Source: Pseudomonadota bacterium
Lineage (GTDB): Bacteria > Myxococcota > JACRCW01 > JAFGSX01
Direction: 5' to 3'
Length of the DNA stretch: 64,000 nucleotides
Assembly (NCBI GenBank): GCA_043821645.1
Contig: JBDRCO010000068.1
Span: forward strand, 128,001-192,000
Positions within the stretch are counted from its first letter, which is position 1; every line of letters begins with the position of its first letter. Position numbers and translations under genes: made by a program. Under the pieces are notes generated by a model. It was given only the letters and a program-made list of their open reading frames with translations, made no database searches and was not told the DNA's origin. This document shows positions 20,801-38,255 of this stretch, in pieces.

Positions 20801-21452
20801 TCTGGTCGGGGTGCCGGACCGCGTGCTCGCCTTCCTGTCCCGCCACGGCATGGCCGACGCGATTGGCCTGGACAACCTCTACCCCGACGAGAGGACCGCG
20901 GTGGCCAGCGTGCACCAGCAGGCCCACAGCCAGTCCAGCGAGGCGGAGTGCCCGCTGCAGCAGCTGCTCCCGCACGTGACCGAACTGGCGCGCCACAGCG
21001 ACGGCTCGCTGCGAGGCTGCGAGCACCATGGCCTGGCCCACTGCCAGCACATCGTCGCCATTCGCTTCGATGGCCTGCTCAACTTCGCCACCATCGGCCT
21101 GCTGGAGCAGGAACTGCGCCGGCGTCTGTCCCAGCGCACGCCGAGTCCGCGGCATGTCCTGATCGCGGGTCACACCCTGGCCAACGTCGACAGCGAGGCA
21201 GCGCAGGATCTTCTCACGCTGATCCAGTCGCTGCGGGGTGAGGGTGTCCGGGTGGCCTTGAGCGGCCTCAGGGACGATGTGCTCGAGGTGCTGGAGCGCG
21301 CGGCAGCGACCTCCGGAGGGCCGCTCCAGGACCTGTTCCCGACCCAGGAAAAGGCGCTCGATGCGCTCCACCCTGAAGCGCACCAGGGGAGCACCGAGCA
21401 GCCGTGCCCGCTGAAGGAAGTGGTCCGGGCCCAGCCGCAGCCCGACGCGTAG
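17865..21452 (+). CDS. SulP/SLC26 anion transporter with large loop insertion (CxxCH) and four tandem STAS domains
   Basis: DLIAGITVALVLVPQSMAYAQLAG, FGSSRQLATGP, NQELVGQGLAN, GSFSRTAVN; four 151-aa STAS repeats start at 19611, 20064, 20517 and 20970. Confidence 0.93.
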   Translation: MSWVLKLLPFLRWFKGYSGSTLRADLIAGITVALVLVPQSMAYAQLAGMPPYYGLYAAFLPGIVASLFGSSRQLATGPVAVVSLMTAAALEPLASAGSEAFVGYALFLSLLVGLFQVALGVLRLGLVVNFLSHPVVNGFTNAAALIIATSQLSKLFGVSVAKAHLHLVTVARVLVAGVQEAHLPTVGMAVLAFATMILLRKLQPRIPNVLVAVVVATLLAWAVGFEQKQTVDLSQIQAPEVVALVDRYNEEQSVKERFEAVRAHGRKGWDPSSAEGEKACTACHGERDPATFTDQAKGPVDGAMVNAFALHELAGVLEARSQAHRHGLGSLRTDLTRTNLVPVRGADGRLVFVAPGQVPPGVTPEKGRWHLRVSTGPLDTSALVLSGGGSVVGAIPRGLPTLRAPSMNWSILGKLLAAAIIISLLGFMEAISIAKAMAARTRQHLDANQELVGQGLANLVGAFTQGYPVSGSFSRTAVNYQAGGQTGLSNVVAGAMVGVVLLFLSGALYHLPDAVLAAIIVMAVAGLINVKGFVHAWRTSRLDGAISIITFGVTLGLAPELEWGIATGVSLSLIAYLYRSMRPEVVELVPDEQGVMRDVRRHELTRCKHLAVVGFEGPLNFASVSYLEETLLHLVADYTGLKHLVIKGDGISEIDASGEETLRHVVENLRTAGTAVSFSGWPEGIVDVLRRSGLHQEIGAGHFFHTRAEALSAIYADVHEGTGETDCPFRRAMPPLVELSMHPDGTLRDALRHKLPRCRHIAALRFDADLTFANTAYLEEETRARIADRSNLRHLVLVAHGVASMDTSAAKRLLGMIEKLHGEGIEVSLSGLKDEVLDILSRDGGLTSLGRDHLYPTQAAAIAGVYARAHAGSSEEECPFSEFAPRLRELSLYSDGALREADQYHLRTCQVIAVLRFDGSLLLGNPRALTSEFIAWAKTRISVNTVLFTAQALTKIDDSSARNLLGLVEAVREAGFRVALVGVPDRVLAFLSRHGMADAIGLDNLYPDERTAVASVHQQAHSQSSEAECPLQQLLPHVTELARHSDGSLRGCEHHGLAHCQHIVAIRFDGLLNFATIGLLEQELRRRLSQRTPSPRHVLIAGHTLANVDSEAAQDLLTLIQSLRGEGVRVALSGLRDDVLEVLERAAATSGGPLQDLFPTQEKALDALHPEAHQGSTEQPCPLKEVVRAQPQPDA

Positions 21453-21476
21453 GATCCAGGACGCCAGGCGCCGAGG

Positions 21477-21908
21477 TCACCAGCCGCGGGTGCGCAGGAT
21501 CTCCTCGACTTCTTTCTGAGAGCGCTTCTCGGCCGCGGCGATGCGCTTGCCGCGGGCGAGGCGGATCTTCTCAAGCAGGGTGCCAATGTCGGTGGGCTTC
21601 TCCAGCACGTCCACCGCACCCAGCCGCGTGGCCTCGACCGCCGCCTTGACCGTGGCTTGCCCGGTGAGCAGCATCACCTGCAGATCCGCGCGCAGGGCGA
21701 GCATGGCCTTGAGCGTGTCGATGCCATTCATGCCGGGCATCGCGAAATCCAGCACCACGGCGTCGTAGGTCCTGGCCTCGACCCGGGACACGCCGGTGTG
21801 GCCGTCGTGGGCGGTCTCGACCTCGAGGCCGCGCGAGCGGAGTCGCTCGGCCAGGGCCTCCACGAACTCCACCTCGTCATCAACCAGAAGCACCTTCTCC
21901 GTCGTCAT
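21477..21908 (-). CDS. Single-domain response regulator
   Basis: VLLVDDE, LDFAMPGMNG, LTGQAT, EKP. Confidence 0.93.
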   Translation of the reverse strand: MTTEKVLLVDDEVEFVEALAERLRSRGLEVETAHDGHTGVSRVEARTYDAVVLDFAMPGMNGIDTLKAMLALRADLQVMLLTGQATVKAAVEATRLGAVDVLEKPTDIGTLLEKIRLARGKRIAAAEKRSQKEVEEILRTRGW

Positions 21909-21919
21909 GGGTCACCTCA

Positions 21920-22597
21920 TCAAGAGACGTGCGCGGTGGCAGTGCCCGCGTGTGCCGGGAGCCAGAATGCGATGCGTGCGTTGTGTTCGGGTGGACAGGC
22001 GCGCAGGGTGCCGCCCAGCGCGTGCAACTGCTGGCGGACGCCGCTCACGCGCTGCTGCGCCGCCTTGGTCAGGGGATCCGGAAAAGCCTGGCCATCCAGC
22101 TCGACCAGCAGGCCTTGATCGACAGGTCGGATCCGCAGGGTCAAGGCCACAGGTGGCGTCTCCAGCCACACCTGCACCGCCGAGAACACCAGCTGGAGCA
22201 GCAGGTAGGGGCAGGTCTCGATCACCACCGGAGAGTCGTGAAAGTCGTGGCTCAGGGTCGAATTGGTCAGCCGCACTGGCCGCTCGAGCAGATCCAGGGC
22301 TCCGCGCAGCAGATCCACCGCGTCGATCACGGCGTGGTTGGCGTCGGTGCTGTGCGCGAAGTGCGAGATGCTGCGCACCAGCCCCTGGCCACGCTGGACC
22401 TGGGCCTGGAGCTTCTGCGCCAGGGCCTGCACGCGCCCGCGCTCGTCGGCAGGAGCCGCGGACAGGTCCTCGATGAGCCCGGCCACCTCGTTGAGGATAT
22501 TGAGGACGTTGATCACCTCGTGGCACTGCGCCGCCACCACCGCGCCAAAGAAGGCCACACCCTCGTCGCAGCGGTGCTGGTCGCCGGCTGTGCTCAC
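21920..22597 (-). CDS. HisKA-like protein with degenerate HATPase domain (pseudo-kinase/phosphotransferase)
   Basis: H-box-like CHEVINVLNILNEVAGLIED, similar to the neighbouring kinase; no N/G1/F/G2 boxes. Confidence 0.7.
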   Translation of the reverse strand: MSTAGDQHRCDEGVAFFGAVVAAQCHEVINVLNILNEVAGLIEDLSAAPADERGRVQALAQKLQAQVQRGQGLVRSISHFAHSTDANHAVIDAVDLLRGALDLLERPVRLTNSTLSHDFHDSPVVIETCPYLLLQLVFSAVQVWLETPPVALTLRIRPVDQGLLVELDGQAFPDPLTKAAQQRVSGVRQQLHALGGTLRACPPEHNARIAFWLPAHAGTATAHVS

Positions 22598-27415: not shown

Positions 27416-27722
27416 GCGCACCTCGCGGCTGGCAAGTGATACAGGCACCCCCGGCACAGGCCTTTCATCCCGCCCGTCAACCGCGCCAGGCAGGGCGTGG
27501 CGGGCTTGCCAGAGCGGAATGCCGCTGTGCGTCATATGACGACATCTCAAGCAGAAGCTCCTGTCAAGCAGCGGCCTCTGTGGTGGCCTGAGGGCTTTCT
27601 TCGGTGAATCGACGGACCTGCCATGCCTGTCAGGTGATGCTGGAAACCGCATGCGCGCATGCAGGGCAGGGCGGCTGTTACCCCCCCGGATCGATGCTCA
27701 AGCGAGCTCTCTTCTCACTTCA

Positions 27723-27750
27723 GATTTACATGACAAAAACAATGTAAATA
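27723..27750. other. Degenerate Xer-type 11-6-11 palindrome
   Basis: GATTTACATGA-CAAAAA-CAATGTAAATA; same TTTACAT-N10-ATGTAAA core as 33089-33116. Confidence 0.45.
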
Positions 27751-27766
27751 TCTATTAAATATACAT

Positions 27767-27790
27767 TATAATGCTAATTATCATTCTCAT
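27767..27790. promoter_or_regulatory. Fur-box-like operator overlapping a TATAAT hexamer
   Basis: TATAATGCTAATTATCATT matches 14/19 to GATAATGATAATCATTATC and continues as a hexamer array (...CATTCTCAT), within a ~70-bp AT island. Confidence 0.55.
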
Positions 27791-28064
27791 GAATGAACCG
27801 CCGACCCACACCGTCCCAGGTAACAAGCGACTTGAGCGTTTTGCACGGCGAACGCTGGAAACCCTCCGAGCTTCGCGTTCACACCACCAAGAGGTGGCAG
27901 CGACCTGACATTCGTGTCAGCTTCGGCTCGTCGGAAAAAACCGCCGCGTGTGTCCCCTGACCGCCCATCTGCCCGAAATATGAACACAAAACCGGGTCCT
28001 CGCGACCTGGCAAGGTTCCTGCTCATGGACCAGGCAACACGCGCACCCACGGTGGAGGATTTCA

Positions 28065-29324
28065 ATGCGCCATTCCAATCTGGCCCTGGCCCTGCTGGCA
28101 GCCACCCTGACCCTGGCAAGCCAGGGTTGCATCATCATCTCCATCCAGGACTGGGACGACGACAACAATTCCTGCGACGGCTACGGCTGTAGCGACCAGG
28201 CCTGCCCGCCGGACGCCGTGTGGATCTATGGCGAGTGCCAGGACCCGCGCGCCGACTTCGACGGCGACGGCCTGGTCAACGGTGAAGAGGCCGGCTGCGG
28301 TACCGACCCCGCCACCTACGACAGCAACGGCGACGGCATGGCCGATGGCGAGGCGGATGCCGACCGCGATGGCCTGGCCAATGCGCACGAGACCGCCGCC
28401 GGCTGCTCCTGCCAAAACCCGGACAGCGATGGCAATGGCGAGCTCGACGGCAACGAGGACGCCGACGGCGACGGGCTGGACGCCGCCCTGGAGCAAGCCC
28501 TGGGCACGGATCCCGGCATGTACGACTCTGACTACGACGGCGTGGGCGACGGCGACGAGGACTTTGACGGTGATGGCCTGAGCAATGCCGGGGAGTCCAT
28601 CACCGGCAGCGATCCACGCAACGCCGATTCGGACTTCGATGGCCAGCTCGATGGCGCCGAGGATCCCGATGGCGACGGCCTCAGCAATGCCGCCGAGATC
28701 CGCGCGGGCACGGATCCGAACAGCGCGGACAGTGACGGCGACGGCGAGCTCGACGGCGACGAGGACCTGGATGGCGATGGCCTCACCACCAGCACCGAGC
28801 TGCGCGCCGGCACGGATCCGAACAGCGTCGACACCGACCAGGACGGCGTGCCCGATGGCCACGAGGACCTGGACGGCGATGGCATCAACAACTTCGACGA
28901 GCAGTGTGACGGCACAGATCCCCGCATCCCCGACGGCCCGGGCTGGAACCAGGACAGCGACCAGGACGGCCTGAGCGATGCCGCCGAGCAGGCCTGCGGC
29001 ACCGACGCCTTTGCCTACGACAGCGACGGCAATGGCCGCGGCGACGCTTACGAGGACGCGGACGGAGACGGCGTGCCCAATGGCGAGGAGGAGCAGTTCA
29101 ACGGCACCGGTTGCCTCAACCCGGACAGCGACGGCGACGGCACCAACGATGGCGCCGAGGTGGCTTCCCTGCGCGATCCCCTGGTTCCAGATGGCGGCCC
29201 GGTCACCGACTACGGCCTCTACGAGTGCGGCTGCTGCGCGTCCATGCTGCCGGGTTCGGCCAGCCTGTCAGGACTGCTGCTGGGCTTCGGCCTGGTCCTG
29301 CGCCGGCGTCGCCACGCAGCCTGA
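28065..29324 (+). CDS. Asp-rich Ca-binding (TSP3-like) repeat lipoprotein with MYXO-CTERM-like tail; paralog of 16519..17619
   Basis: Signal ending ASQGC, about 10 repeats DGDGLxNxxExxxGTDPxxxDSDxDGxxDGxED, C-terminal CGCC + TM + RRRR; GGAGG RBS. Confidence 0.88.
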   Translation: MRHSNLALALLAATLTLASQGCIIISIQDWDDDNNSCDGYGCSDQACPPDAVWIYGECQDPRADFDGDGLVNGEEAGCGTDPATYDSNGDGMADGEADADRDGLANAHETAAGCSCQNPDSDGNGELDGNEDADGDGLDAALEQALGTDPGMYDSDYDGVGDGDEDFDGDGLSNAGESITGSDPRNADSDFDGQLDGAEDPDGDGLSNAAEIRAGTDPNSADSDGDGELDGDEDLDGDGLTTSTELRAGTDPNSVDTDQDGVPDGHEDLDGDGINNFDEQCDGTDPRIPDGPGWNQDSDQDGLSDAAEQACGTDAFAYDSDGNGRGDAYEDADGDGVPNGEEEQFNGTGCLNPDSDGDGTNDGAEVASLRDPLVPDGGPVTDYGLYECGCCASMLPGSASLSGLLLGFGLVLRRRRHAA

Positions 29325-29387
29325 GCACCCCAGGTCAGGCCGCGCTCGGATACCTACCTCGTCGCCACCCCGACATCAGACCGTGTA

Positions 29388-30683
29388 TCAGTGAATCTCG
29401 CCGTAACGTTGCCTCAGCGCATCGAGGGAGTCGCTGAGTGTGCTGGCGGCCGCGTCGGCGAAGGCACGGCGCTCGGCATCGATGGCTGTCTGCTCACTGT
29501 CGACGTAGAGCAGGGCATCCACCCCGCCGGGGCCGAGCACGGGCAAGACCAGCCATTGCCGGGGCGCCGGCGCACCGAGGAATCCCAGCAGGATGCGATC
29601 GATGGCGTCCATGCGCTCGGGGTCGCCAGCCACCACCTGGCGTGTGGTGTAGGCCAGGCGCAGGGTCGACGGGGGAGTCAAGGGCAGCAGCACGTCGCGG
29701 ATGCGCTGGCTATCCAGGTGCGGCCCACCACCGTCCCAGCCCACGGCCAGGTCATGACGGACCAGGAACACTGCCACGTGGGCAAAGCGCGAGGTCAGCG
29801 AGGGCAAGAGCTGCGCGCTCACGCTGTCCCGCGCGCGCCTGACCTCGTCCTTGTTCACCACGCCTTGCCAGCCCTCGACGGGATCCCGGGTTGTCGCCGG
29901 GGAGTGCCAGCCAGGAACGCGCGCCGCCGCCACAGGTTTCCCGGGCAGGGTCGGCATGAGCGGAGGGTCTTGCTGCAAGGCGAAGGGCGCGGGGGTGAGC
30001 TCGTCGTCAAACTCCGCGTCGCTGAGCTGGACACTGGCCAGGCTGGCCAGCAAGGGCGACTTGCTGCCGTCGCCGAACACGCCGGATCCGGGATCGCTAT
30101 GGGGCGGTTCCTCCCACACCAGGTCGCGGTGAACAGGGATGCCGCCGCTGCTGGCGGTGCGGATACCCACCGCGGGCAAGTGCACGTCCCGAGGGGGTGG
30201 CAGCACTGCTGTCTCGAGCGCGTGCTCGAGGGTGAAGCCTGCCATGGGCGTCGGAGGTGGCACCCGGTAGGCGTCAAACAGGGTTCCAAAAAGCGCACGC
30301 GGCCGCGCCACGTAGGGCTCGACCGCGAGGCTGGTGAACAGGGCCAGATCCTCGATGGCGCGGTCGTCCGACGGATCCAGCATGGCCACATGCAAGCGGT
30401 TGCCACTGCGCAAAAAGGGCACCAGGCAGCAATCCTCGGCCAGGCGACTGGGCACCAGGGCCAGCACGCGCGCCGGAGGCAAGATCGCGAGCTGGGCTGT
30501 GGCGTCGCGGGCGCCGAGTTCGAGCAGGGTGCTAAACACCAGCTCCTCGGCCACCACGCCTGACAGGTGCAGACGCAGCGCGAACAGGCGGCCCCGCAGC
30601 GCAGGCGAGCGCATGATCGTGTCGACCGCGCTCGCGTCGAGCACGCCACGACGAACCAGTTCGGTGGTCAGGCGCGAGGGCAT
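29388..30683 (-). CDS. GspE/PilB N-terminal (T2SSE_N/MshEN-like) domain protein with C-terminal GAF-like domain, no ATPase
   Basis: VLALVPSRLAEDCCLVPF...LHVAMLDPSD...LALFTSLAVEPYVA pattern; Pro-rich linker. Confidence 0.75.
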   Translation of the reverse strand: MPSRLTTELVRRGVLDASAVDTIMRSPALRGRLFALRLHLSGVVAEELVFSTLLELGARDATAQLAILPPARVLALVPSRLAEDCCLVPFLRSGNRLHVAMLDPSDDRAIEDLALFTSLAVEPYVARPRALFGTLFDAYRVPPPTPMAGFTLEHALETAVLPPPRDVHLPAVGIRTASSGGIPVHRDLVWEEPPHSDPGSGVFGDGSKSPLLASLASVQLSDAEFDDELTPAPFALQQDPPLMPTLPGKPVAAARVPGWHSPATTRDPVEGWQGVVNKDEVRRARDSVSAQLLPSLTSRFAHVAVFLVRHDLAVGWDGGGPHLDSQRIRDVLLPLTPPSTLRLAYTTRQVVAGDPERMDAIDRILLGFLGAPAPRQWLVLPVLGPGGVDALLYVDSEQTAIDAERRAFADAAASTLSDSLDALRQRYGEIH

Positions 30684-30867
30684 GCGGTCCTGGCTTCTCT
30701 CGGCGGGCTCCGTCGGTCCCTCGCTCGTCGAGAGAGCATCTCGCCGAGCATCACCCTGGGAGCGTTTGGCCGCATGCTAGGGACGGGGGCGCGCAAAGGT
30801 CAAGACCACACAGCTTGACGCGATGAGCGGGGCCATCTAAGTGCAGGGAGCGCCAGCGAGGAACGCC

Positions 30868-32034
30868 ATGTCGCCACGCCTGTACTGTGACCACAACGCC
30901 ACCAGCCCGGTGCCCCCCGAGGTGCGTGCGGCGATGATCAAGGCCCTGGGGGAGCCCCTGGGCAATCCCTCGAGCGTGCACGCCGCCGGACAGCGCTCGG
31001 CCGAGCTGCTCGAGCGCGCACGGGGTGAGGTGGCCGAGGCCGTGGCTGTCGACGCCGCGCAGGTGCTGTTCACCAGCGGAGGCAGCGAGTCCAACGCACT
31101 GGCCCTGGCTGGCGTGGTTCATGGCAGCCGGCGCAGCGCGGTCGCGGTGAGTGCGGTCGAGCACCCATCCGTGCTCGAGGCGGCGCGCGTGCTGTGCCAG
31201 CGAACCGAGCGCGAACTGCGGCTGCTGCCTGTGGGTCGCAGCGGTCACGTCGAGGTCGAGGCCGCCAGCCGCCTCATTGACGACAGCGTGGCCCTGGTGT
31301 CGGTGCAGTATGCCAACCACGAGACCGGCGCGGTGCAGCCCATCGCCGAGCTCGGCGCGCTGGCGCGGCACCATGGCTGCCTGTTTCACGTCGACGCGGC
31401 GCAAGGTCTGGGCCGCCTGAAGCTGGACCTCGCCGAGTTCGAACTGGACCTGATGAGTCTTTCCGGGCACAAGGCCGGCGCCCCCGCAGGTATTGGCGCA
31501 CTGGTGGTACGGCCGGGGGTACCGCTGCAGCCGCTGTTCTATCGCGGCCACCAGGAGCGCGGTCTGCGCGCCGGCACCCCGAATCTGCTCGGTGCCGTGG
31601 GGCTGGGCGCTGCCTGCAAGTTGCTGGTGCCGCGAAGCCTGACCGCCTGCGCGCGCCTGCGCAGCCTGCGCGACCAGCTGGCGCAGCAACTCGAAGCGCG
31701 CGTGCCGCACACCGTGGTGCTGACCCCGCGTAGCCCGGCCGTGCTGGCCCAGACCCTGTGCCTTGCCTTCGAGGGCGCACACGCCGAGGCCGTGGTGGCC
31801 GAGCTGGATCAGCGCGGGGTGGCCGCCTCGGCCGGTGCCGCCTGCCGCGCCGGACAGAGCGACCCCTCGAGCGTGCTGCTGGCCATGGGGGTGGCACCCG
31901 AGCTGGCGCTGTGTGCGGTGCGCTTCTCCCTAGGGCCGGAGCATGCGGTGGCCGACATCGAGCAGGTCATCGCGGCCACGGTGGAGGCAGTCGCCGCAGT
32001 GCGCACCCACGTGGGGCATGAGGCCGGCCGGTGA
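30868..32034 (+). CDS. iscS: Cysteine desulfurase (IscS/NifS class)
   Basis: YCDHNATSP, GNPSSVH, FTSGGSESN, ANHETG, SGHK (PLP Lys), SAGAAC catalytic loop. Confidence 0.92.
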   Translation: MSPRLYCDHNATSPVPPEVRAAMIKALGEPLGNPSSVHAAGQRSAELLERARGEVAEAVAVDAAQVLFTSGGSESNALALAGVVHGSRRSAVAVSAVEHPSVLEAARVLCQRTERELRLLPVGRSGHVEVEAASRLIDDSVALVSVQYANHETGAVQPIAELGALARHHGCLFHVDAAQGLGRLKLDLAEFELDLMSLSGHKAGAPAGIGALVVRPGVPLQPLFYRGHQERGLRAGTPNLLGAVGLGAACKLLVPRSLTACARLRSLRDQLAQQLEARVPHTVVLTPRSPAVLAQTLCLAFEGAHAEAVVAELDQRGVAASAGAACRAGQSDPSSVLLAMGVAPELALCAVRFSLGPEHAVADIEQVIAATVEAVAAVRTHVGHEAGR

Positions 32035-33089
32035 GCCGCTACCTGGTCGGCCTCAGCGGCGGCGTGGACTCCAGCGTGGCGGCCGCGTTGCTGGTGGAGC
32101 AGGGCCATGAGGTCATCGGCGCCTCGCTGCGCCTGGTCGACGACCCCAGCGCGCCCAGCCACCGCAGCTGCTGTAGCCAGGAAGATCTGGCCGCGGCCCG
32201 CGCCCTCTGCGCGCAGCTGGACATCCCCTACTATGTCTTTGACCTGCGCGCGCGCTTTGACGAGCTGGTCATCCAGCCCTTCGTGCTCGACTACCTGCAG
32301 GGCCGCACTCCCAACCCCTGCGTGCTGTGCAACCAGCACTTCAAATTCGGCGAGCTGCTGCAGCGCGCCCTGGCCCAGGGTGCCCGCCTGGCCACCGGCC
32401 ACTACGCGCGACTGCTTCAGCTGCAGGGCCGCACCTGGCTGGCCAGGGCCTGTGACCGGGGCAAGGACCAAAGTTATTTTCTCTATCGTTTAAGCCATCA
32501 AGCCATTGTAAGCACTGACTTTCCTCTCGGTGGGCTGACCAAGGTCGAGGTCCGCGCGCACGCCCGGCGGCTGGCCCTGAGCGTGCAGCACAGGCCAGAG
32601 AGTCAGGAGGTCTGCTTTGCCGAAGAGGGCGCCGCGACCTTCGTGGCGGGCAGGGCAGGGCGACAGGTCTGCGCCGGAGTGGTGCGGGACGAGCAAGGCC
32701 AGGCCCTGGGTGAGCATGCTGGCATCCACAACTTCACCATTGGCCAGCGCCGCGGCCTGGGGATAGGTGGCGGGCCACGCCGCTTTGTCACGGCGATAGA
32801 CGGCAGCAGCGGTGCGGTCGAGGTGGGGCCGGACAGCGCGCTGTTCAAGCGCCAGGTGATCCTCGAACAGGTTCAATGGTCTGGCGAAAAAGATATGGAT
32901 ACAAAGGAGTTACGGGCAAAAATTCGTGCCCGGCACGAACCCGCAGCGGTGCGGGTGCAGGCGCGGTCCGAGGCCAGCCTGGAGCTGGAATTCGAGCAGC
33001 CGCAACGGGCGCCAGCACCCGGTCAGGCCTGTGTGATTTACTGTGGAGAACGTGTGGTCGGGGGTGGAGTCATCGCCCGTGCCGCATAA
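32031..33089 (+). CDS. mnmA: tRNA 2-thiouridine(34) synthase
   Basis: SGGVDS PP-loop, TPNPCVLCN, ATGHYAR, KDQSYFL, ESQEVCF, TIGQRRGLG. Confidence 0.97.
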   Translation: MSRYLVGLSGGVDSSVAAALLVEQGHEVIGASLRLVDDPSAPSHRSCCSQEDLAAARALCAQLDIPYYVFDLRARFDELVIQPFVLDYLQGRTPNPCVLCNQHFKFGELLQRALAQGARLATGHYARLLQLQGRTWLARACDRGKDQSYFLYRLSHQAIVSTDFPLGGLTKVEVRAHARRLALSVQHRPESQEVCFAEEGAATFVAGRAGRQVCAGVVRDEQGQALGEHAGIHNFTIGQRRGLGIGGGPRRFVTAIDGSSGAVEVGPDSALFKRQVILEQVQWSGEKDMDTKELRAKIRARHEPAAVRVQARSEASLELEFEQPQRAPAPGQACVIYCGERVVGGGVIARAA

Positions 33090-33116
33090 TTTTACATAAT
33101 ATGGATTATGTAAAAT
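33089..33116. other. Palindromic Xer-type site with two identical XerD-like arms
   Basis: ATTTTACATAA-TATGGA-TTATGTAAAAT; both arms are identical to the XerD arm of the dif at 35218. Confidence 0.8.
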
Positions 33117-34479
33117 GAACATCCTCGAGCAGGTCCCGCTCAGCGTCCATCAGACCTGGCAACGCGTGCAGGCGGCAGGTCATGGCATCCACCTGGTGGG
33201 CGGTGCGGTACGCGACATCCTGCTCGGGCGCGCCACCAGCGATTTCGACCTGGCCTCGAGCGCCACGCCACAACAGCTCACCGAGCTCTTTGAGCGTGTT
33301 ATTCCAACAGGTTGGAAGCACGGAACGGTGACCGTGGTACAGCCGGACGGCCTGCTGGTCGAGATCACCAGCTATCGCAGCGAGGGTCCGTATTCAGATG
33401 GGCGGCACCCGGACCTGGTACAGCTCGGCAGCACGATAGAGCAGGACCTCGGACGCAGGGATTTCACCATCAACGCCATGGCCGTGAACTGCAACAGCGG
33501 CCAGCTGCTCGATCTGCATGGCGGTCAGGACGACCTGCGTGCCCGCCTGGTGCGCACTGTTGGCGAGCCAGCCAAAAGATTTCAAGAAGATGGCTTGCGT
33601 CTGTGGAGGGCGGCCCGGTTTGCGGCCACGCTCGAGTTCGAGGTGGAGCCCGGCACGCTGCAGGCCATGCGGGAGCAGTCGGCGTGTCTGCGCAAGGTGG
33701 CGGCGGAGAGGCAAAAAGATGAGCTGTTGCGCTTGCTTCAGGCGGTCGCTCCATCACGGGGTTTCAGGTTGCTGCAGCGCACAGGTCTGTTGAACCTGGT
33801 CCTGCCCGAGCTCGAGCGCTGCGTGGGCGTCGAACAAGGTGGCTGGCACCAGCACGACGTGTTCGAGCATAGTCTTGCAGCCCTGGACGCAGCGCCACAA
33901 GATCACCCAACACTACGTCTTGCTTTACTTTTACATGATATTGGCAAGCCTGGCTGCGCTCGCGGCGAGCTGCCGGATCGGTCCTTTCACGGCCACGAGC
34001 AACAAGGTGCGGAGCTGGCCCGGCAGGTTCTCGAGCGCCTGCGATTTTCCCGCAGCACGGTGGATGAGGTGGTCGCACTGGTTGCGGGCCACATGTGGCA
34101 CTACACAGACGACTGGAGCGATGGTGCGGTCAGGCGCTTTGTCTCGAGGCTGGGCCTGGATCGCCTCAACGATGTTTTCTTGTTCAGGGACGCTGACTTG
34201 CAAGGGAGAGGCGAAACCGGGCTAAAGGACGGTCAGCAACGCTCGCGGGCTTTGACCGCGCGCATCGAGCAGGTGCTGCAAACCAGCCATGTGCTGACCG
34301 TGCGCGACCTGGCGCTCGACGGCAAGGCGGTGTGCCGCATCCTGGGGATAGAGCCGGGCCCCATCGTGGGCCAGGCGCTGGCCTGGTGTCTGGAGCAGGT
34401 GCAGGACAGGCCACAGGACAACAATTCAGAAACATTAGAAAAGATGCTTCGGGACTGGTACCGCGGGCGCGGCCACTAG
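33115..34479 (+). CDS. cca: CCA tRNA nucleotidyltransferase with HD domain
   Basis: VGGAVRD, DFD, DLGRRDFTINAMA, EDGLR, LLLHDIGK. Confidence 0.9.
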   Translation: MNILEQVPLSVHQTWQRVQAAGHGIHLVGGAVRDILLGRATSDFDLASSATPQQLTELFERVIPTGWKHGTVTVVQPDGLLVEITSYRSEGPYSDGRHPDLVQLGSTIEQDLGRRDFTINAMAVNCNSGQLLDLHGGQDDLRARLVRTVGEPAKRFQEDGLRLWRAARFAATLEFEVEPGTLQAMREQSACLRKVAAERQKDELLRLLQAVAPSRGFRLLQRTGLLNLVLPELERCVGVEQGGWHQHDVFEHSLAALDAAPQDHPTLRLALLLHDIGKPGCARGELPDRSFHGHEQQGAELARQVLERLRFSRSTVDEVVALVAGHMWHYTDDWSDGAVRRFVSRLGLDRLNDVFLFRDADLQGRGETGLKDGQQRSRALTARIEQVLQTSHVLTVRDLALDGKAVCRILGIEPGPIVGQALAWCLEQVQDRPQDNNSETLEKMLRDWYRGRGH

Positions 34480-34534
34480 ACCGATTTCGCGCAAAAACGA
34501 AACGGTGAGCAAAGCCCCGCCAAAGGCATCAGAA

Positions 34535-34753
34535 TTTTCCACTTGTTTTCCACAGGGATCGGCCAAAAAACGTGGCCAAATTCGAGGCAGGTGAACGCAA
34601 CAGTGCACGAGCACCACATGAACTTCACATAATTCGCCTAAGGCGTTGTGAAATAAGACTTTTTTAAAGCAACCGATCGTCGTACTTCAGGTCGTGCTGA
34701 TGCAAAACAAAAGGGTTCTTGAAGCTTTGGGTCAGGAGTCGGCCTGTGGAAAA
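34535..34753. promoter_or_regulatory. Small cluster of DnaA-box-like 9-mers in an AT-rich intergenic region
   Basis: TTTTCCACA 34546-34554 (+), TGTGGAAAA 34745-34753 (-), near matches TTTTCCACT 34535-34543 and TGTGAAATA 34647-34655. Confidence 0.4.
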
Positions 34754-34912
34754 GCTGTGACTTCATCCTCACGCGAAAAGTGCCGCCTAAGTCCAACTGA
34801 AAGCATGGTTTTATTTTTTATCAGCCCGGGCGAGGCCAAGCGAGCCAAATTGCCATTGCACAGTCGTCGTGGGGTGCGGTAACAGGGTGCGAGCGAGCAG
34901 CGAGGTTTTCAG

Positions 34913-35218
34913 ATGAGTGAAGGTACCAAGGGTGGAGCCGCAAGCCGGTCCAAGAAGTGGCTGAAGACAGGTATCTTCGCAGCCGGGATGGCGGTCATCC
35001 TGGGGGTGGCGGTGGCGGTCAGCCTGCTGGACACGCCGCCGGTCATGCCCGCTGACGAGACCCATGTGGTCATCGACAAGTTCCCCAACAAGGCCTGCCT
35101 CGAATGCCACGCTCCAGACAGCCTGCCGAACTCGCATCCCATCGAGTACGAGAGGTTTGCCTGCACGAGATGCCACCAGCAGACCCAGAAGACCGCTCCA
35201 CCGGGAGTGACGCAATAA
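34913..35218 (+). CDS. Small membrane-anchored diheme c-type cytochrome (NapB-like layout)
   Basis: N-terminal TM, PPVMP..H, CLECH, SH, RFACTRCH. Confidence 0.85.
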   Translation: MSEGTKGGAASRSKKWLKTGIFAAGMAVILGVAVAVSLLDTPPVMPADETHVVIDKFPNKACLECHAPDSLPNSHPIEYERFACTRCHQQTQKTAPPGVTQ

Positions 35219-35245
35219 TTTTACATAATGCTTCTTATCGGACAA
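35218..35245 (-). other. dif: dif site (XerC/XerD chromosome dimer resolution site)
   Basis: Minus strand TTGTCCGATAA-GAAGCA-TTATGTAAAAT, 11-6-11 like E. coli GGTGCGCATAA-TGTATA-TTATGTTAAAT; intergenic; KOPS polarity switches around it. Confidence 0.9.
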
Positions 35246-35425
35246 TCAGATCGGGCCCCCACCGGACAATATCGATTATTAAAGAGTTTCTGAGCGCCGC
35301 TGCGTCTGCCTCATCCCCCACCATCAACGCACCTGCGCATCGCCCGCCAAGCTTGTGCACAGGAAGCACGCCTTGGGCCTGACAAGCCCCGGGCTGCGGC
35401 AGCTGTGAGCAGCGAGCGCGACTAG

Positions 35426-35569
35426 CAGGACTTGAGCCGCTGGTGCAACGAGCCGCCATCAGGACTTTGGGCCGCTGTGTGCAGCGTGCCGCCATCAGGC
35501 TGTCGCCCGCCAGTCCTGGTCACAGACCGCTCCTTGGACAAGCCCTGGCCCGTCCTAGACAAGCCCTGG
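35426..35569 (+). repeat. Two short imperfect tandem duplications in the gene-free region after dif
   Basis: ~35-bp unit CAGGACTT(T)G(A/G)GCCGCTG(T)GTGCA(A/G)CG(A/T)GCCGCCAT at 35426 and 35460; TCCT..GACAAGCCCTGG at 35531 and 35553. Confidence 0.7.
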
Positions 35570-35765
35570 TGAGCCGGCTTCCCCCTGAACCTGGCTTTTC
35601 TGGCTTCCTGACGTCTCTCTTGTGGCCTTGATGCCTTTGCATGCCGCCCGACCTGGCCTCTGGCTCGCTGTGTTGTGGCCTTGACCAGGTCGCCGCAGGC
35701 CCTGCGCGCGGTGAATGCCCACCCTGGTGGATTCTTAAGTACATCAAGGCCAAGAAAATATTATA

Positions 35766-35818
35766 TATTTACAGAATTTACACAGTTTACAGATTGACAC
35801 GGATGTACGCATTTACAG
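35766..35818 (+). repeat. Array of TTTACA-like hexamers with 8-10 bp period
   Basis: TTTACA at 35768, 35777, 35786, 35812; variants TTGACA 35794 and TGTACG 35804. Confidence 0.65.
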
Positions 35819-36238
35819 CCCTTGGGTAGCGATTTTGACAGGGTCAACCCAAGCCAGCACACCCTACCTGGGCTGCGGTTGCCGCCCTGCACGAGCACCG
35901 AACCACCCAAAATGTGCGCTTGGCCGGCTCACGGGCTTTGGAGTGCAGGACCCCGAACGAAGAAATGCTGCACCCGAACCAGGACGCCCGACCGAGGTTG
36001 GGTTCGGCACGCGGAGGAGCAGCCTCGCCTGACACGTCCCCCTGAACCGATGGATAGGAACGCGCGGGACAGCGTGAACCCAGCCGGTAGCTCAGCCAGA
36101 CGCAGACGCGGGACTCAGGTCCCCGGCCAGGACCGGCGCAGCCATCGCACTGCCAGACGGCTTGCTGCTACCGACATAACAAATTGGTATGATTGGTCAT
36201 TACAGAAGCTCCGGAGCACGGGTTGCAGCTGTGCCGGC

Positions 36239-36266
36239 TTTTTACAGAACAGGGATTATGTGAAAT
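36239..36266. other. Second Xer-type site with two XerD-like arms
   Basis: TTTTTACAGAA-CAGGGA-TTATGTGAAAT (9/11 and 10/11 to the dif XerD arm). Confidence 0.7.
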
Positions 36267-36329
36267 CTGCGCCACCCGAGACCTGCACCGCGGTCGCAAG
36301 GAGCAAAATAACCTCGAATATACAACTAG

Positions 36330-38255
36330 TTATCGAATCACTTTGAGGCGGCGCCGCGCTAGCAAGGCGCCAAGGAGCAGCAGACCTGCGGTCAGGGAGC
36401 TGCGCTGCTCACCGGCACTGGAACACGAGAAACCCTGAACCGGCCCCAGGCTGGCTTTCTGTGACGGTTGCGAGGGTTCCGCGCCCGGCAGGACCGGGTG
36501 CTGACGCGAGTTTGCGAGCTCGAGCTGGGCAACGGGCGCTGGCAGCTGCAGTCCTGGACCGGCTGGCGGTTCCTCGAGCGGAGGTTCTTCGACCGGCGGT
36601 TGTTCTGGCGGAGGCTCGCCAGGCGGAGGCTCGGTGACCACGGAGGTCACGGCACTGAGCGCGATCTCGATGCGCTGGTTGTGACCACCCACCACGCTGA
36701 TGCTGCGCTCGTCGGGTTCGTAGCCGTCCTTGCTGGTGCGCACGGTGGCGGAGCCGGCGCTGAGGGTGAAGTGGACCTCGCCTGAAACCGAGGTCAGCTG
36801 GGCCGCCTGGCCCACGACCTGGACCGTGGCGCCATCCAGGGAGGCGCCCTGCCCGGCCGCCTGATCGTGCACGTGGAAGGTCAGCTCGGCGCTGGTCGGT
36901 ACCGGCGACAGACCGATGGAGGCCCAGGTCTCGGAGCCGGCGGTGACCTGCACGCTGCGCGAACTCTCGGCGTAGCCGGTGGCCGAGGCGGTGATGGTGT
37001 AGGTCCCGGGGTCGAGCTCGAAGCTCCAGTAGGCATCGTCGCTGCGCACGCCGCTGCTGGCGCCGCTGGAACTGCGCACGGTGGCGGCGGTCAGCCGGAG
37101 ATTGCCCAGGTCGGAGGGACCTGCGGTCACGGCCAGGTCCCACACCACGCCCTTGATGCTGCCCTTGGTCGGGGTGGCCGGGGGTGGCGGAGTGGTGGTG
37201 CCGCCGCTGCTCGCCACCGAGCGGAGGGTGCCCATCTGCGCGTACAGGTTGGTGCCCGGGCAGGCGGTGGCGGCCAGGTCGCGGTGGCCGACCACGCTGC
37301 TGCTGCTCACGCTGATGCCGTAGTCACGGGCCAGCAGCCCTATGAGTTTGCCTCCACCCTGGACCATGGCTGCGGGTGGAGTCTGCGGGGGCAGCGACGA
37401 GCAGTCGCTGGTGTGAAAGCAGCCCACGAAGGTGACGCCGAGGTTGTTGGTGTTCTGGTTGGCCACGTGTGCGCCCAGGTACTTGGCCTCGCGCGCCTCC
37501 CAGGTGCGGCCGTCGGCAGTGACGAAGAAGGTGTAGCCCACGTCGCAGTAGCCGCGCGCGTCCATGTGGTAGGCCTGGATCTGGCGCAGGTTGGCCTCGT
37601 AGCTCCCGTTGACCGTGGTGGCCGTCACGGTGTGGTGCACCGTGACCTTGGTCTTGCTGCTGTTCAAAGAGGTGCAGCGGGTGGCGCGAGCGCCCCAGGC
37701 CGCGCGCGACAGCACGCCACCGTTCGCCAGGCTGGTGGCCAGGGCTTGCTGCTGCGCTTCTGCGTTGCGCAGGCTGACAGCGTCGGGCTCCCAGTAGGGT
37801 GCGCTGGCCTGCATCGGGACAAAAAGCTGCCACTGCACGAAGACATAGGCCTCGACCTCGAGCTCCGGGATGCGAATCTGCGCGGCCACCGCCTCGAAGC
37901 CCAGGTCGGCGTGAGCCACGCGCAGAGGGTGTTCCTCCCAGGTGAAGACCACAGGCTGCCAGGGTCCGGGCTGGCCGTCGGCGTCGAGGCCGCGGGCTTC
38001 GGGGTACAGCGGCGCAGCCTCGCGATCCAGCGCCACCTCGATCATGAATCCAGCGCGGGTCACAGGCAGGGTGGAGTCGAGGCTCGGCGACTCGTAGTAA
38101 CCGTCGCGCAGGGTGTAGCTGTCGCGCAGGCGCTCGCCCAGGACGCGAGCCGAGGCCCCGTCATCACCGTCCCAGGGCGCAGGCGCCAGGCGCTCGCAGG
38201 CCAGAACAAGGCTCAGCAGCAGCAAGACGGGCCAGAAAGACTTGTACGCGCGCAT
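36330..38255 (-). CDS. N-acetylmuramoyl-L-alanine amidase (Amidase_2/PGRP-like) lipoprotein with carboxypeptidase-regulatory-like domains and MYXO-CTERM-like tail
   Basis: SRAAWGA, VHHT, IQAYHM, GYCDVGY, GAH, GHRD...TACPG; lipobox LVLAC; C-terminal FSC..TM..RRR. Confidence 0.9.
   Translation of the reverse strand: MRAYKSFWPVLLLLSLVLACERLAPAPWDGDDGASARVLGERLRDSYTLRDGYYESPSLDSTLPVTRAGFMIEVALDREAAPLYPEARGLDADGQPGPWQPVVFTWEEHPLRVAHADLGFEAVAAQIRIPELEVEAYVFVQWQLFVPMQASAPYWEPDAVSLRNAEAQQQALATSLANGGVLSRAAWGARATRCTSLNSSKTKVTVHHTVTATTVNGSYEANLRQIQAYHMDARGYCDVGYTFFVTADGRTWEAREAKYLGAHVANQNTNNLGVTFVGCFHTSDCSSLPPQTPPAAMVQGGGKLIGLLARDYGISVSSSSVVGHRDLAATACPGTNLYAQMGTLRSVASSGGTTTPPPPATPTKGSIKGVVWDLAVTAGPSDLGNLRLTAATVRSSSGASSGVRSDDAYWSFELDPGTYTITASATGYAESSRSVQVTAGSETWASIGLSPVPTSAELTFHVHDQAAGQGASLDGATVQVVGQAAQLTSVSGEVHFTLSAGSATVRTSKDGYEPDERSISVVGGHNQRIEIALSAVTSVVTEPPPGEPPPEQPPVEEPPLEEPPAGPGLQLPAPVAQLELANSRQHPVLPGAEPSQPSQKASLGPVQGFSCSSAGEQRSSLTAGLLLLGALLARRRLKVIR

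Follow-up and report, generated by a model that had tools for sequence, protein, structure and literature searches.

Does the recombinase XerD have docking sites of its own beside the dif site at which it acts together with XerC? In the terminus of Bacillus subtilis, XerD unloads Smc-ScpAB, a complex of the structural maintenance of chromosomes (SMC) type, at dif-like XerD sites (XDS), according to the available excerpts of two reports (PMC11840125, PMC11894783). The locus described here raises the same question for a Myxococcota-like bacterium. We analyzed a DNA stretch of 64,000 nucleotides (the window; G000:C68:128001-192000) taken from a genome of 7.07 Mb in 140 contigs with 67% G+C; positions below are those of the window unless a contig is named. 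A sequence-only reading had placed a dif with one XerC and one XerD arm (C/D type) at 35218-35245, amid an array of eight or more sites formed from the XerD arm. We found that dif is flanked by two robust sites, each consisting of two inverted XerD arms around a 6-bp center and lacking an XerC arm (D-D sites), and that of the larger array these two alone remain.

dif and the two flanking palindromes

The dif (ATTTTACATAA-TGCTTC-TTATCGGACAA, plus strand, 35218-35245) is composed of an XerD arm at 35218-35228 and an XerC arm at 35235-45. It is intergenic and low in G+C, its first base doubling as the final stop-codon base of a small cytochrome gene. The cumulative GC skew of the 356-kb contig C68 reached its maximum in the bin 160001-170000 and then fell, and dif (C68:163218) lies inside this bin. 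A phylum-wide C/D pattern (TTWACATAA-N6-TTATCRGAC, at most one mismatch) was found in 283 of 401 sampled genomes, a tally that takes in one genome (G195) flagged as unpublished, and in 237 of the 316 high-quality ones, almost always as a single match; for the reversed pattern, used as a control, one match (G033) is noted in the part of the table on record. In the source genome, dif was the sole match to this pattern. Dif sequences of Myxococcales, including that of Anaeromyxobacter dehalogenans, are given in Table 1 of Carnoy and Roten (2009; PMC2731167). As far as the available part of that paper goes, the dif of the loci in family f15 is the reverse complement of the A. dehalogenans dif, and the dif of family f11 is similar to that of Myxococcus xanthus; because these published sequences match, the conserved TTATGTAAA side was assigned as the XerD arm, and the phylum is in all likelihood Myxococcota. 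By its sequence features, the site at 35218-35245 qualifies as a true XerC/XerD dif of the terminus; the skew peak, the single copy, and the phylum-wide pattern all bear out what the sequence-only reading had called here. Like the Escherichia coli dif of the XerCD-FtsK system, it is laid out as 11-6-11, its XerD arm is conserved and its XerC arm varies more, and it lies at a GC-skew switch. The locus differs from that system in having flanking D-D sites, which have no XerC arm and share no center with dif and thus are not extra dif sites.

D-D site 1 (33089-33116, ATTTTACATAA-TATGGA-TTATGTAAAAT) is a perfect palindrome of two XerD arms with 0 mismatches. On the XerD-arm side of dif and 2129 bp away, it occupies the 25-nt gap between the stop codon of mnmA (33087-89) and the start of cca (33115). 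D-D site 2 (36239-36266, TTTTTACAGAA-CAGGGA-TTATGTGAAAT) has two mismatches in one arm and one in the other and is the second-best D-D site in the genome; it is found on the XerC-arm side of dif, at a distance of 1021 bp. All four arms differ from the XerC arm by 4 to 5 bases and from the XerD arm by 0 to 2. The innermost bases are TTATG/CATAA on both sides of site 1, and TTATG on the right and CAGAA (one change) on the left of site 2. Besides, the exact 11-mer ATTTTACATAA occurs only three times in the 7.07-Mb genome, always within the same 2.1 kb; with at most one mismatch, the XerD-arm 11-mer had eight matches genome-wide, four of them here, and with at most two mismatches it had 66, seven of them here.

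We then scanned the whole genome for two inverted XerD arms with a 6-bp spacer, using the reversed arm as a control. Five sites had a total of six or fewer mismatches, i.e., D-D site 1 (0), D-D site 2 (3), C87:224461 (4), dif itself (5), and C23:174867 (6), and the numbers rose to 7, 28, and 119 sites at 7, 8, and 9 mismatches. The reversed arm gave no site at five or fewer mismatches and 2, 8, 29, and 130 sites at 6, 7, 8, and 9. Because of these mismatch counts, D-D sites 1 and 2 stand far above background. The double-arm 11-6-11 sites first noted at 33089 (perfect) and 36239 (3 mismatches) are thus real and have no equivalent elsewhere in the genome.

A profile search of the genome identified the proteins that would be expected to act on such sites. 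XerD scored 335.7 bits (cut-off, 329.6), and an XerC-like protein scored 334.1 bits, just below its cut-off of 335.15. An FtsK gamma domain (90.7 bits), Smc (1008 bits), and ScpA (103.5 bits) are also encoded. On the same contig and strand, the scpA gene (G000:C89:13230-13880) precedes the xerC-like gene (21410-22285) by about 8 kb.

The central 6 bp are TATGGA in D-D site 1 and CAGGGA in D-D site 2, versus TGCTTC in dif, and Xer strand exchange requires matching centers. Because their centers differ from that of dif and from each other, the D-D sites are best read as binding sites and not as recombination partners of dif. We consider it likely, from the arm sequences, that XerD binds them, and equally likely, from the centers, that they do not recombine with dif. 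Contigs of near-identical DNA were found in four sequencing runs, which belong to four metagenomic studies of groundwater and biofilm; one of these contigs spans 33011-35269 in the same arrangement. No joints between the sites were seen in the contigs of these four runs over 32900-36400, although contigs cannot reveal rare rearrangements and thus carry no information on recombination.

D-D sites beside dif in relatives

If the two palindromes belong to dif, they should be found beside it in other genomes as well. We scanned up to 10 kb on either side of dif in 60 loci from 58 genomes, together with the locus described here, using the XerD arm of each genome's own dif and allowing five or fewer mismatches. 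D-D sites were detected beside dif at 14 of 17 loci in families f1, f2, and f4, and at none of 44 loci in families f6, f7, f11, f15, f30, and f36; the reversed-arm control gave no match at any of the 61 loci. The 14 positive loci contain 18 D-D sites at offsets of +67 bp to about 5 kb from dif, and an additional match at +6746, in the AT-richer locus of G096, is weak and doubtful. Counted by genome, 14 of 15 were positive in f1, f2, and f4, the negative one being G081. Sites on both flanks of dif were found in this genome, G024, and G051.

The association with dif was also seen in scans of whole genomes. In five f4 genomes searched with at most two mismatches, five of six sites lay within 5 kb of dif, and the sixth was on another contig of a fragmented assembly. 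Within the 18-genome class of f4, ten of the 14 dif-bearing genomes had dif and a D-D site no more than 5 kb apart on one contig, and in three more the D-D site was on a different short contig. The strict palindrome (one or no mismatch) occurred in 11 of the 401 phylum genomes, namely, this one, nine of the 18 f4 genomes, and one AT-rich f10 genome, in which it probably arose by chance; the control matched two genomes. It was found in none of 172 f11, 67 f15, and 20 f6 genomes. Furthermore, five complete f11 genomes yielded no XDS-type site at a relaxed threshold, dif itself being found in four of the five. The clustering near dif that the sequence-only reading had anticipated stands in part: full D-D sites gather within 5 kb of dif in f1, f2, and f4, and the half-sites that it had included are weak or have other explanations.

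Among the 18 D-D sites, the inner five bases were CATAA in 13 left arms and 12 right arms, and C was present at the fifth position in all 36 arms. The centers of the D-D sites all differed from one another and from that of dif, which was mostly TATATC across the f4 loci. At several f4 sites, including those of G015 and G101, the second arm keeps the inner TTATG alone.

The genes around the sites varied. In G001, cca and the cytochrome gene are syntenic with those of this genome, and the ATG of cca lies inside the right arm of the D-D site. The order in G101, confirmed with Pfam, is a NUDIX gene, dif, a radical-SAM gene on the minus strand, the D-D site, and a second radical-SAM gene on the minus strand; in G071 and G066, open reading frames with similar N termini have the same layout. 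Orthologous D-D sites are kept at the same position in several f4 genera. The gene context thus changes and the proximity to dif is kept, which argues against a role tied to a single gene and against recent scars of mobile elements.

These observations bear on two other explanations. The palindromes might be operators of an unrelated transcription factor, or RNA or DNA hairpins, that regulate genes such as cca, their likeness to the XerD arm being incidental. Indeed, D-D site 1 takes up the mnmA-cca gap and reaches into the start of cca, the cca start codon of G001 also falls within an arm, a hairpin can arise from a perfect 11-bp inverted repeat, and TTTACA resembles a -35 hexamer. On the other hand, the dif of the same genome has exactly this sequence as its XerD arm, the sites track dif and no particular gene across three families, and they are the sole such sites in each genome searched. 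We therefore regard an operator or hairpin origin as very improbable.

The sites might instead be scars without present function, left by mobile elements that exploit Xer recombination (IMEX, or the plasmid dif [pdif] modules of Acinetobacter) or by a local duplication of dif. Extra dif-like sites beside dif are typical of an integrated IMEX, and the locus resembles such cases in having additional dif-like 28-mers near dif. Between dif and D-D site 2, the 1 kb of noncoding DNA is unique to this genome and absent from G001; several genomes of the phylum have two C/D sites; and one low-depth metagenome contig diverges inside the XerD arm of dif. However, IMEX and pdif sites combine an XerC with an XerD arm and border mobile cargo. 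Neither D-D site has an XerC arm, which simple Xer integration products should retain, and the genes between site 1 and dif, cca and the cytochrome gene, are housekeeping genes syntenic with G001. No mobile or cargo genes lie between site 1 and dif, and the noncoding gap beyond dif has no convincing Rfam match. IMEX attachment sites and pdif modules are treated in the available parts of two papers (PMC9226527, PMC5357621). In addition, none of the five tyrosine recombinase genes of the genome is on the dif contig, the orthologous sites persist in place in several f4 genera, and perfect or near-perfect palindromes argue for selection. An origin as scars is, in our judgment, very improbable.

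Likeness to XDS and a possible action at the terminus

XDS of B. subtilis and Staphylococcus aureus are reportedly the subject of a study by Karaboja et al. (2021, Mol Cell 81:756), and to our knowledge, XerD as a sequence-specific SMC unloader is known solely from these two species. In the available excerpts of Miele et al. (PMC9226527), an XDS consists of an XerD arm, a degenerate center of 5 to 6 bp, and at least the five innermost bases (TTATG) of a second XerD arm, and two XerD molecules per XDS are suggested. The D-D sites, with their XerD arm, nonconserved center, inner TTATG of the second arm, and lack of an XerC arm, fit every sequence feature of XDS described in those excerpts. They also resemble XDS in lying in the terminus, less than 2.2 kb from dif, in a host that encodes XerD and Smc-ScpA. 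They differ in the host, an uncultured GC-rich Myxococcota-like groundwater bacterium, and in that two robust sites, one of them a perfect full palindrome, lie 1 to 2 kb on either side of dif. A literature search found no account of such XerD-only sites in Myxococcota, with the primary XDS paper and supplementary files lying outside that search.

We slightly favor the interpretation that the D-D sites are XerD-only, nonrecombining docking sites tied to dif that act on motors at the terminus. Each site would bind two XerD molecules without XerC and would serve as a docking site, not as a recombination partner of dif. The XDS of B. subtilis and S. aureus suggest, by analogy, that the docked XerD would then unload or block Smc-ScpAB, or stop FtsK, so that the few kilobases around dif would be kept clear for the action of XerCD-FtsK. 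For SMC unloading in particular, the analogy makes the function possible, with chances that we put somewhat below even.

A comparable task is performed in E. coli by another protein. There, matS sites are spread over a large macrodomain. The MatP/matS system resembles the proposed one in that an SMC complex is kept off the dif region by a protein that binds specific sequences in the terminus, and it differs in its unrelated protein and motif. The terminus-specific exclusion of MukBEF by MatP/matS is given in the available excerpts of PMC11840125 and PMC11894783.

Docked XerD could also serve ends other than SMC unloading. It might raise the local concentration of XerD, stop FtsK on either side of dif, or pair the sister termini via XerD tetramers and thereby aid dif-dif synapsis. 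The D-D sites lie 1 to 5 kb from dif, which this genome, G024, and G051 have flanked on either side. This is closer than a terminus-wide exclusion of SMC seems to need; FtsK with its gamma domain is encoded, and full palindromes would suit XerD dimers and tetramers. Such roles are without known precedent, and in the available parts of the relevant reports, SMC unloading is the sole tested function of XerD-only sites (PMC11840125, PMC11894783, PMC9226527). We thus consider these non-SMC roles rather unlikely.

Several points weigh against docking sites of this kind, and we set them out together. In two dif-bearing f4 genomes, G081 and G056, no D-D site passed the thresholds. Two large families, f11 and f15, do without D-D sites, and therefore the sites are not essential to Xer function. 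The closest relatives have weaker D-D-like sites, with five mismatches in G001 (f1; offset, -1979), four in G002 (+1572), and three in G003 (+1509; both f2). A permutation test of covariation between the D-D arms and the XerD arm of the same genome's dif gave a P value of 0.003, but it was rejected as circular, since the sites had been picked by their likeness to that arm. Robust sites number only two, at 1 to 2 kb from dif, and any likeness to XDS in layout is tentative. D-D site 1 extends into the region where translation of cca starts and may have a local regulatory role. Finally, the functional steps are inferred from sequence and comparison.

Of the XerD-homodimer site system originally envisaged, we retain XDS-type double sites beside dif in three families and give up the large array. 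Since such sites are kept in three families of a distant GC-rich phylum, a second job of XerD may be widespread. A bolder and more doubtful extension, which we advance tentatively, is that XerD-only palindromes bracketing dif at kilobase range are a recurrent "dif fence" that arose or was retained independently in at least two Myxococcota classes, with XerD dimers halting or unloading SMC and/or FtsK and so insulating the site of dimer resolution. If this were true, the fence would be the first sequence-defined terminus-organizing element of Myxococcota, and its loss in Myxococcaceae-like and Anaeromyxobacter-like families would need explaining. In any case, the split within the phylum (f1, f2, and f4 versus f11 and f15) offers a natural comparison for the contribution of the sites, and the palindromes provide exact targets for binding, Hi-C, and deletion work.

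Weaker candidates and neighboring genes

The other members of the proposed array fared differently. A third, doubtful double-arm site lies at 27723-27750 (GATTTACATGA-CAAAAA-CAATGTAAATA), in an AT-rich gap between the divergent SDR and TSP3-repeat genes, 7.5 kb from dif. It has three mismatches in one arm and four in the other, and it keeps the geometry TTTACAT-N10-ATGTAAA with its innermost bases changed. Sites with exactly seven mismatches numbered seven genome-wide, versus eight in the reversed control, and thus by mismatch count, the only measure used in this comparison, the weaker double-arm site suggested at 27723 is at background level. The surrounding 70 bp (27720-27790) are very AT-rich and contain an 8-bp inverted repeat (ATTTACAT/ATGTAAAT); this stretch is probably a promoter or operator region.

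Five single XerD arms (half-sites) had also been listed, at 33928, 34622, 35766, ~36172, and ~36199. The first has two mismatches and falls within the HD-motif codons of cca; the second, also with two, has no partner arm at the canonical spacing; the third has three and opens a tandem repeat of 9-bp units. The motifs at ~36172 and ~36199 have five and four mismatches, and neither is among the matches with three or fewer. We examined half-sites over the region 27600-36400, with the three 28-mers masked, against simulations keeping the local dinucleotide content. Two matches were found at two or fewer mismatches, versus 0.22 expected (P = 0.026), and ten at three or fewer, versus 2.8 expected (standard deviation, 1.7). 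This excess stems mainly from the tandem repeat and from AT-rich sequence around 27.7 kb. With each half-site weak or otherwise explained, by HD codons, the tandem repeat, or four to five mismatches, we rejected them as an XerD array.

The tandem repeat itself (35758-35820) consists of about six 9-bp TTTACAS units (TTTACAGAA, TTTACACAG, TTTACAGAT, and then decaying units), and its first unit agrees with the left arm of D-D site 2 at 10 of 11 positions. The arm-like matches at 35758-35784 belong to this repeat, the TTTACAS units of which cover 35766-35820. We infer that the spacing of its units would be too tight for adjacent XerD monomers.

The best double-arm match away from dif, C87:224461-224488 (ATTTGCCATAA-TCCTAA-TTATTTAATAT), was likewise rejected as a member of the system; it lies inside a longer palindrome of its own, and the skew of its contig never switches. 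It sits in an AT-rich intergenic stretch on a contig of uniform positive skew, and so off the terminus, and it may be an operator for another protein.

The C/D pattern was occasionally found more than once in a genome. G099 (family f26) has seven matches, all on one strand, which might stem from arrayed elements that exploit Xer or from a repeat that carries dif. Two matches each were found in G005, G038, G030, G032, G023, G060, G074, G105, G122, G212, and G293, and these could reflect second replicons, integrated elements, or assembly duplicates. In G038, one dif is on contig C8, with an XerD half-site 136 bp off, and the other, on C125, has a perfect D-D site at a distance of 4.9 kb.

The low-depth metagenome contig mentioned above, which comes from another study (run X2), diverges from the locus at position 35226 inside the XerD arm of dif and continues with 141 unrelated bases. 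A variant strain, the integration of an element at dif, or a chimeric assembly could account for it.

The gene order of the region starts with the SDR gene (minus strand) on the left of 27723 and the divergent TSP3-repeat protein gene on its right, followed by a gene for an MshEN-domain protein (minus strand), a cysteine desulfurase gene, and mnmA (tRNA 2-thiouridylase; 32031-33089, plus strand; PF03054, PF20258, and PF20259), the upstream neighbor of D-D site 1. Between this site and dif are cca (33115-34479, plus strand; CCA-adding enzyme/poly(A) polymerase family with an HD domain; PF01743, PF12627, and PF01966) and the small cytochrome c-like gene (34913-35218, plus strand), for a predicted two-heme protein with two CXXCH motifs and weak NrfB-like and NapB Pfam matches below the cut-off. 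A homologue of the latter is at the same position in G001. The noncoding convergent gap between dif and D-D site 2 spans 35246-36238, and beyond site 2 is a convergent amidase gene on the minus strand, the stop codon of which is 63 nt from the site.

Scans of the region with Rfam (in evalue mode) and for tRNAs revealed no RNA gene that accounts for the noncoding gaps. The single Rfam match, to mir-598 at 28737-28811, scored 26.8 bits against a cut-off of 69, i.e., at chance level, and lies outside the ~1-kb gap. Scans of the region for promoters and terminators were likewise at chance level.

A search for related loci based on cca returned distant matches alone, with 29 to 47% identity, mostly in metagenome-assembled genomes of Clostridia, and these gave no guidance on taxonomy or synteny. 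In addition, the HD-motif region of cca uses AT-rich codons (TTA and CTT), which are seemingly odd at 67% G+C and hint at a foreign origin or a terminus-linked AT drift.

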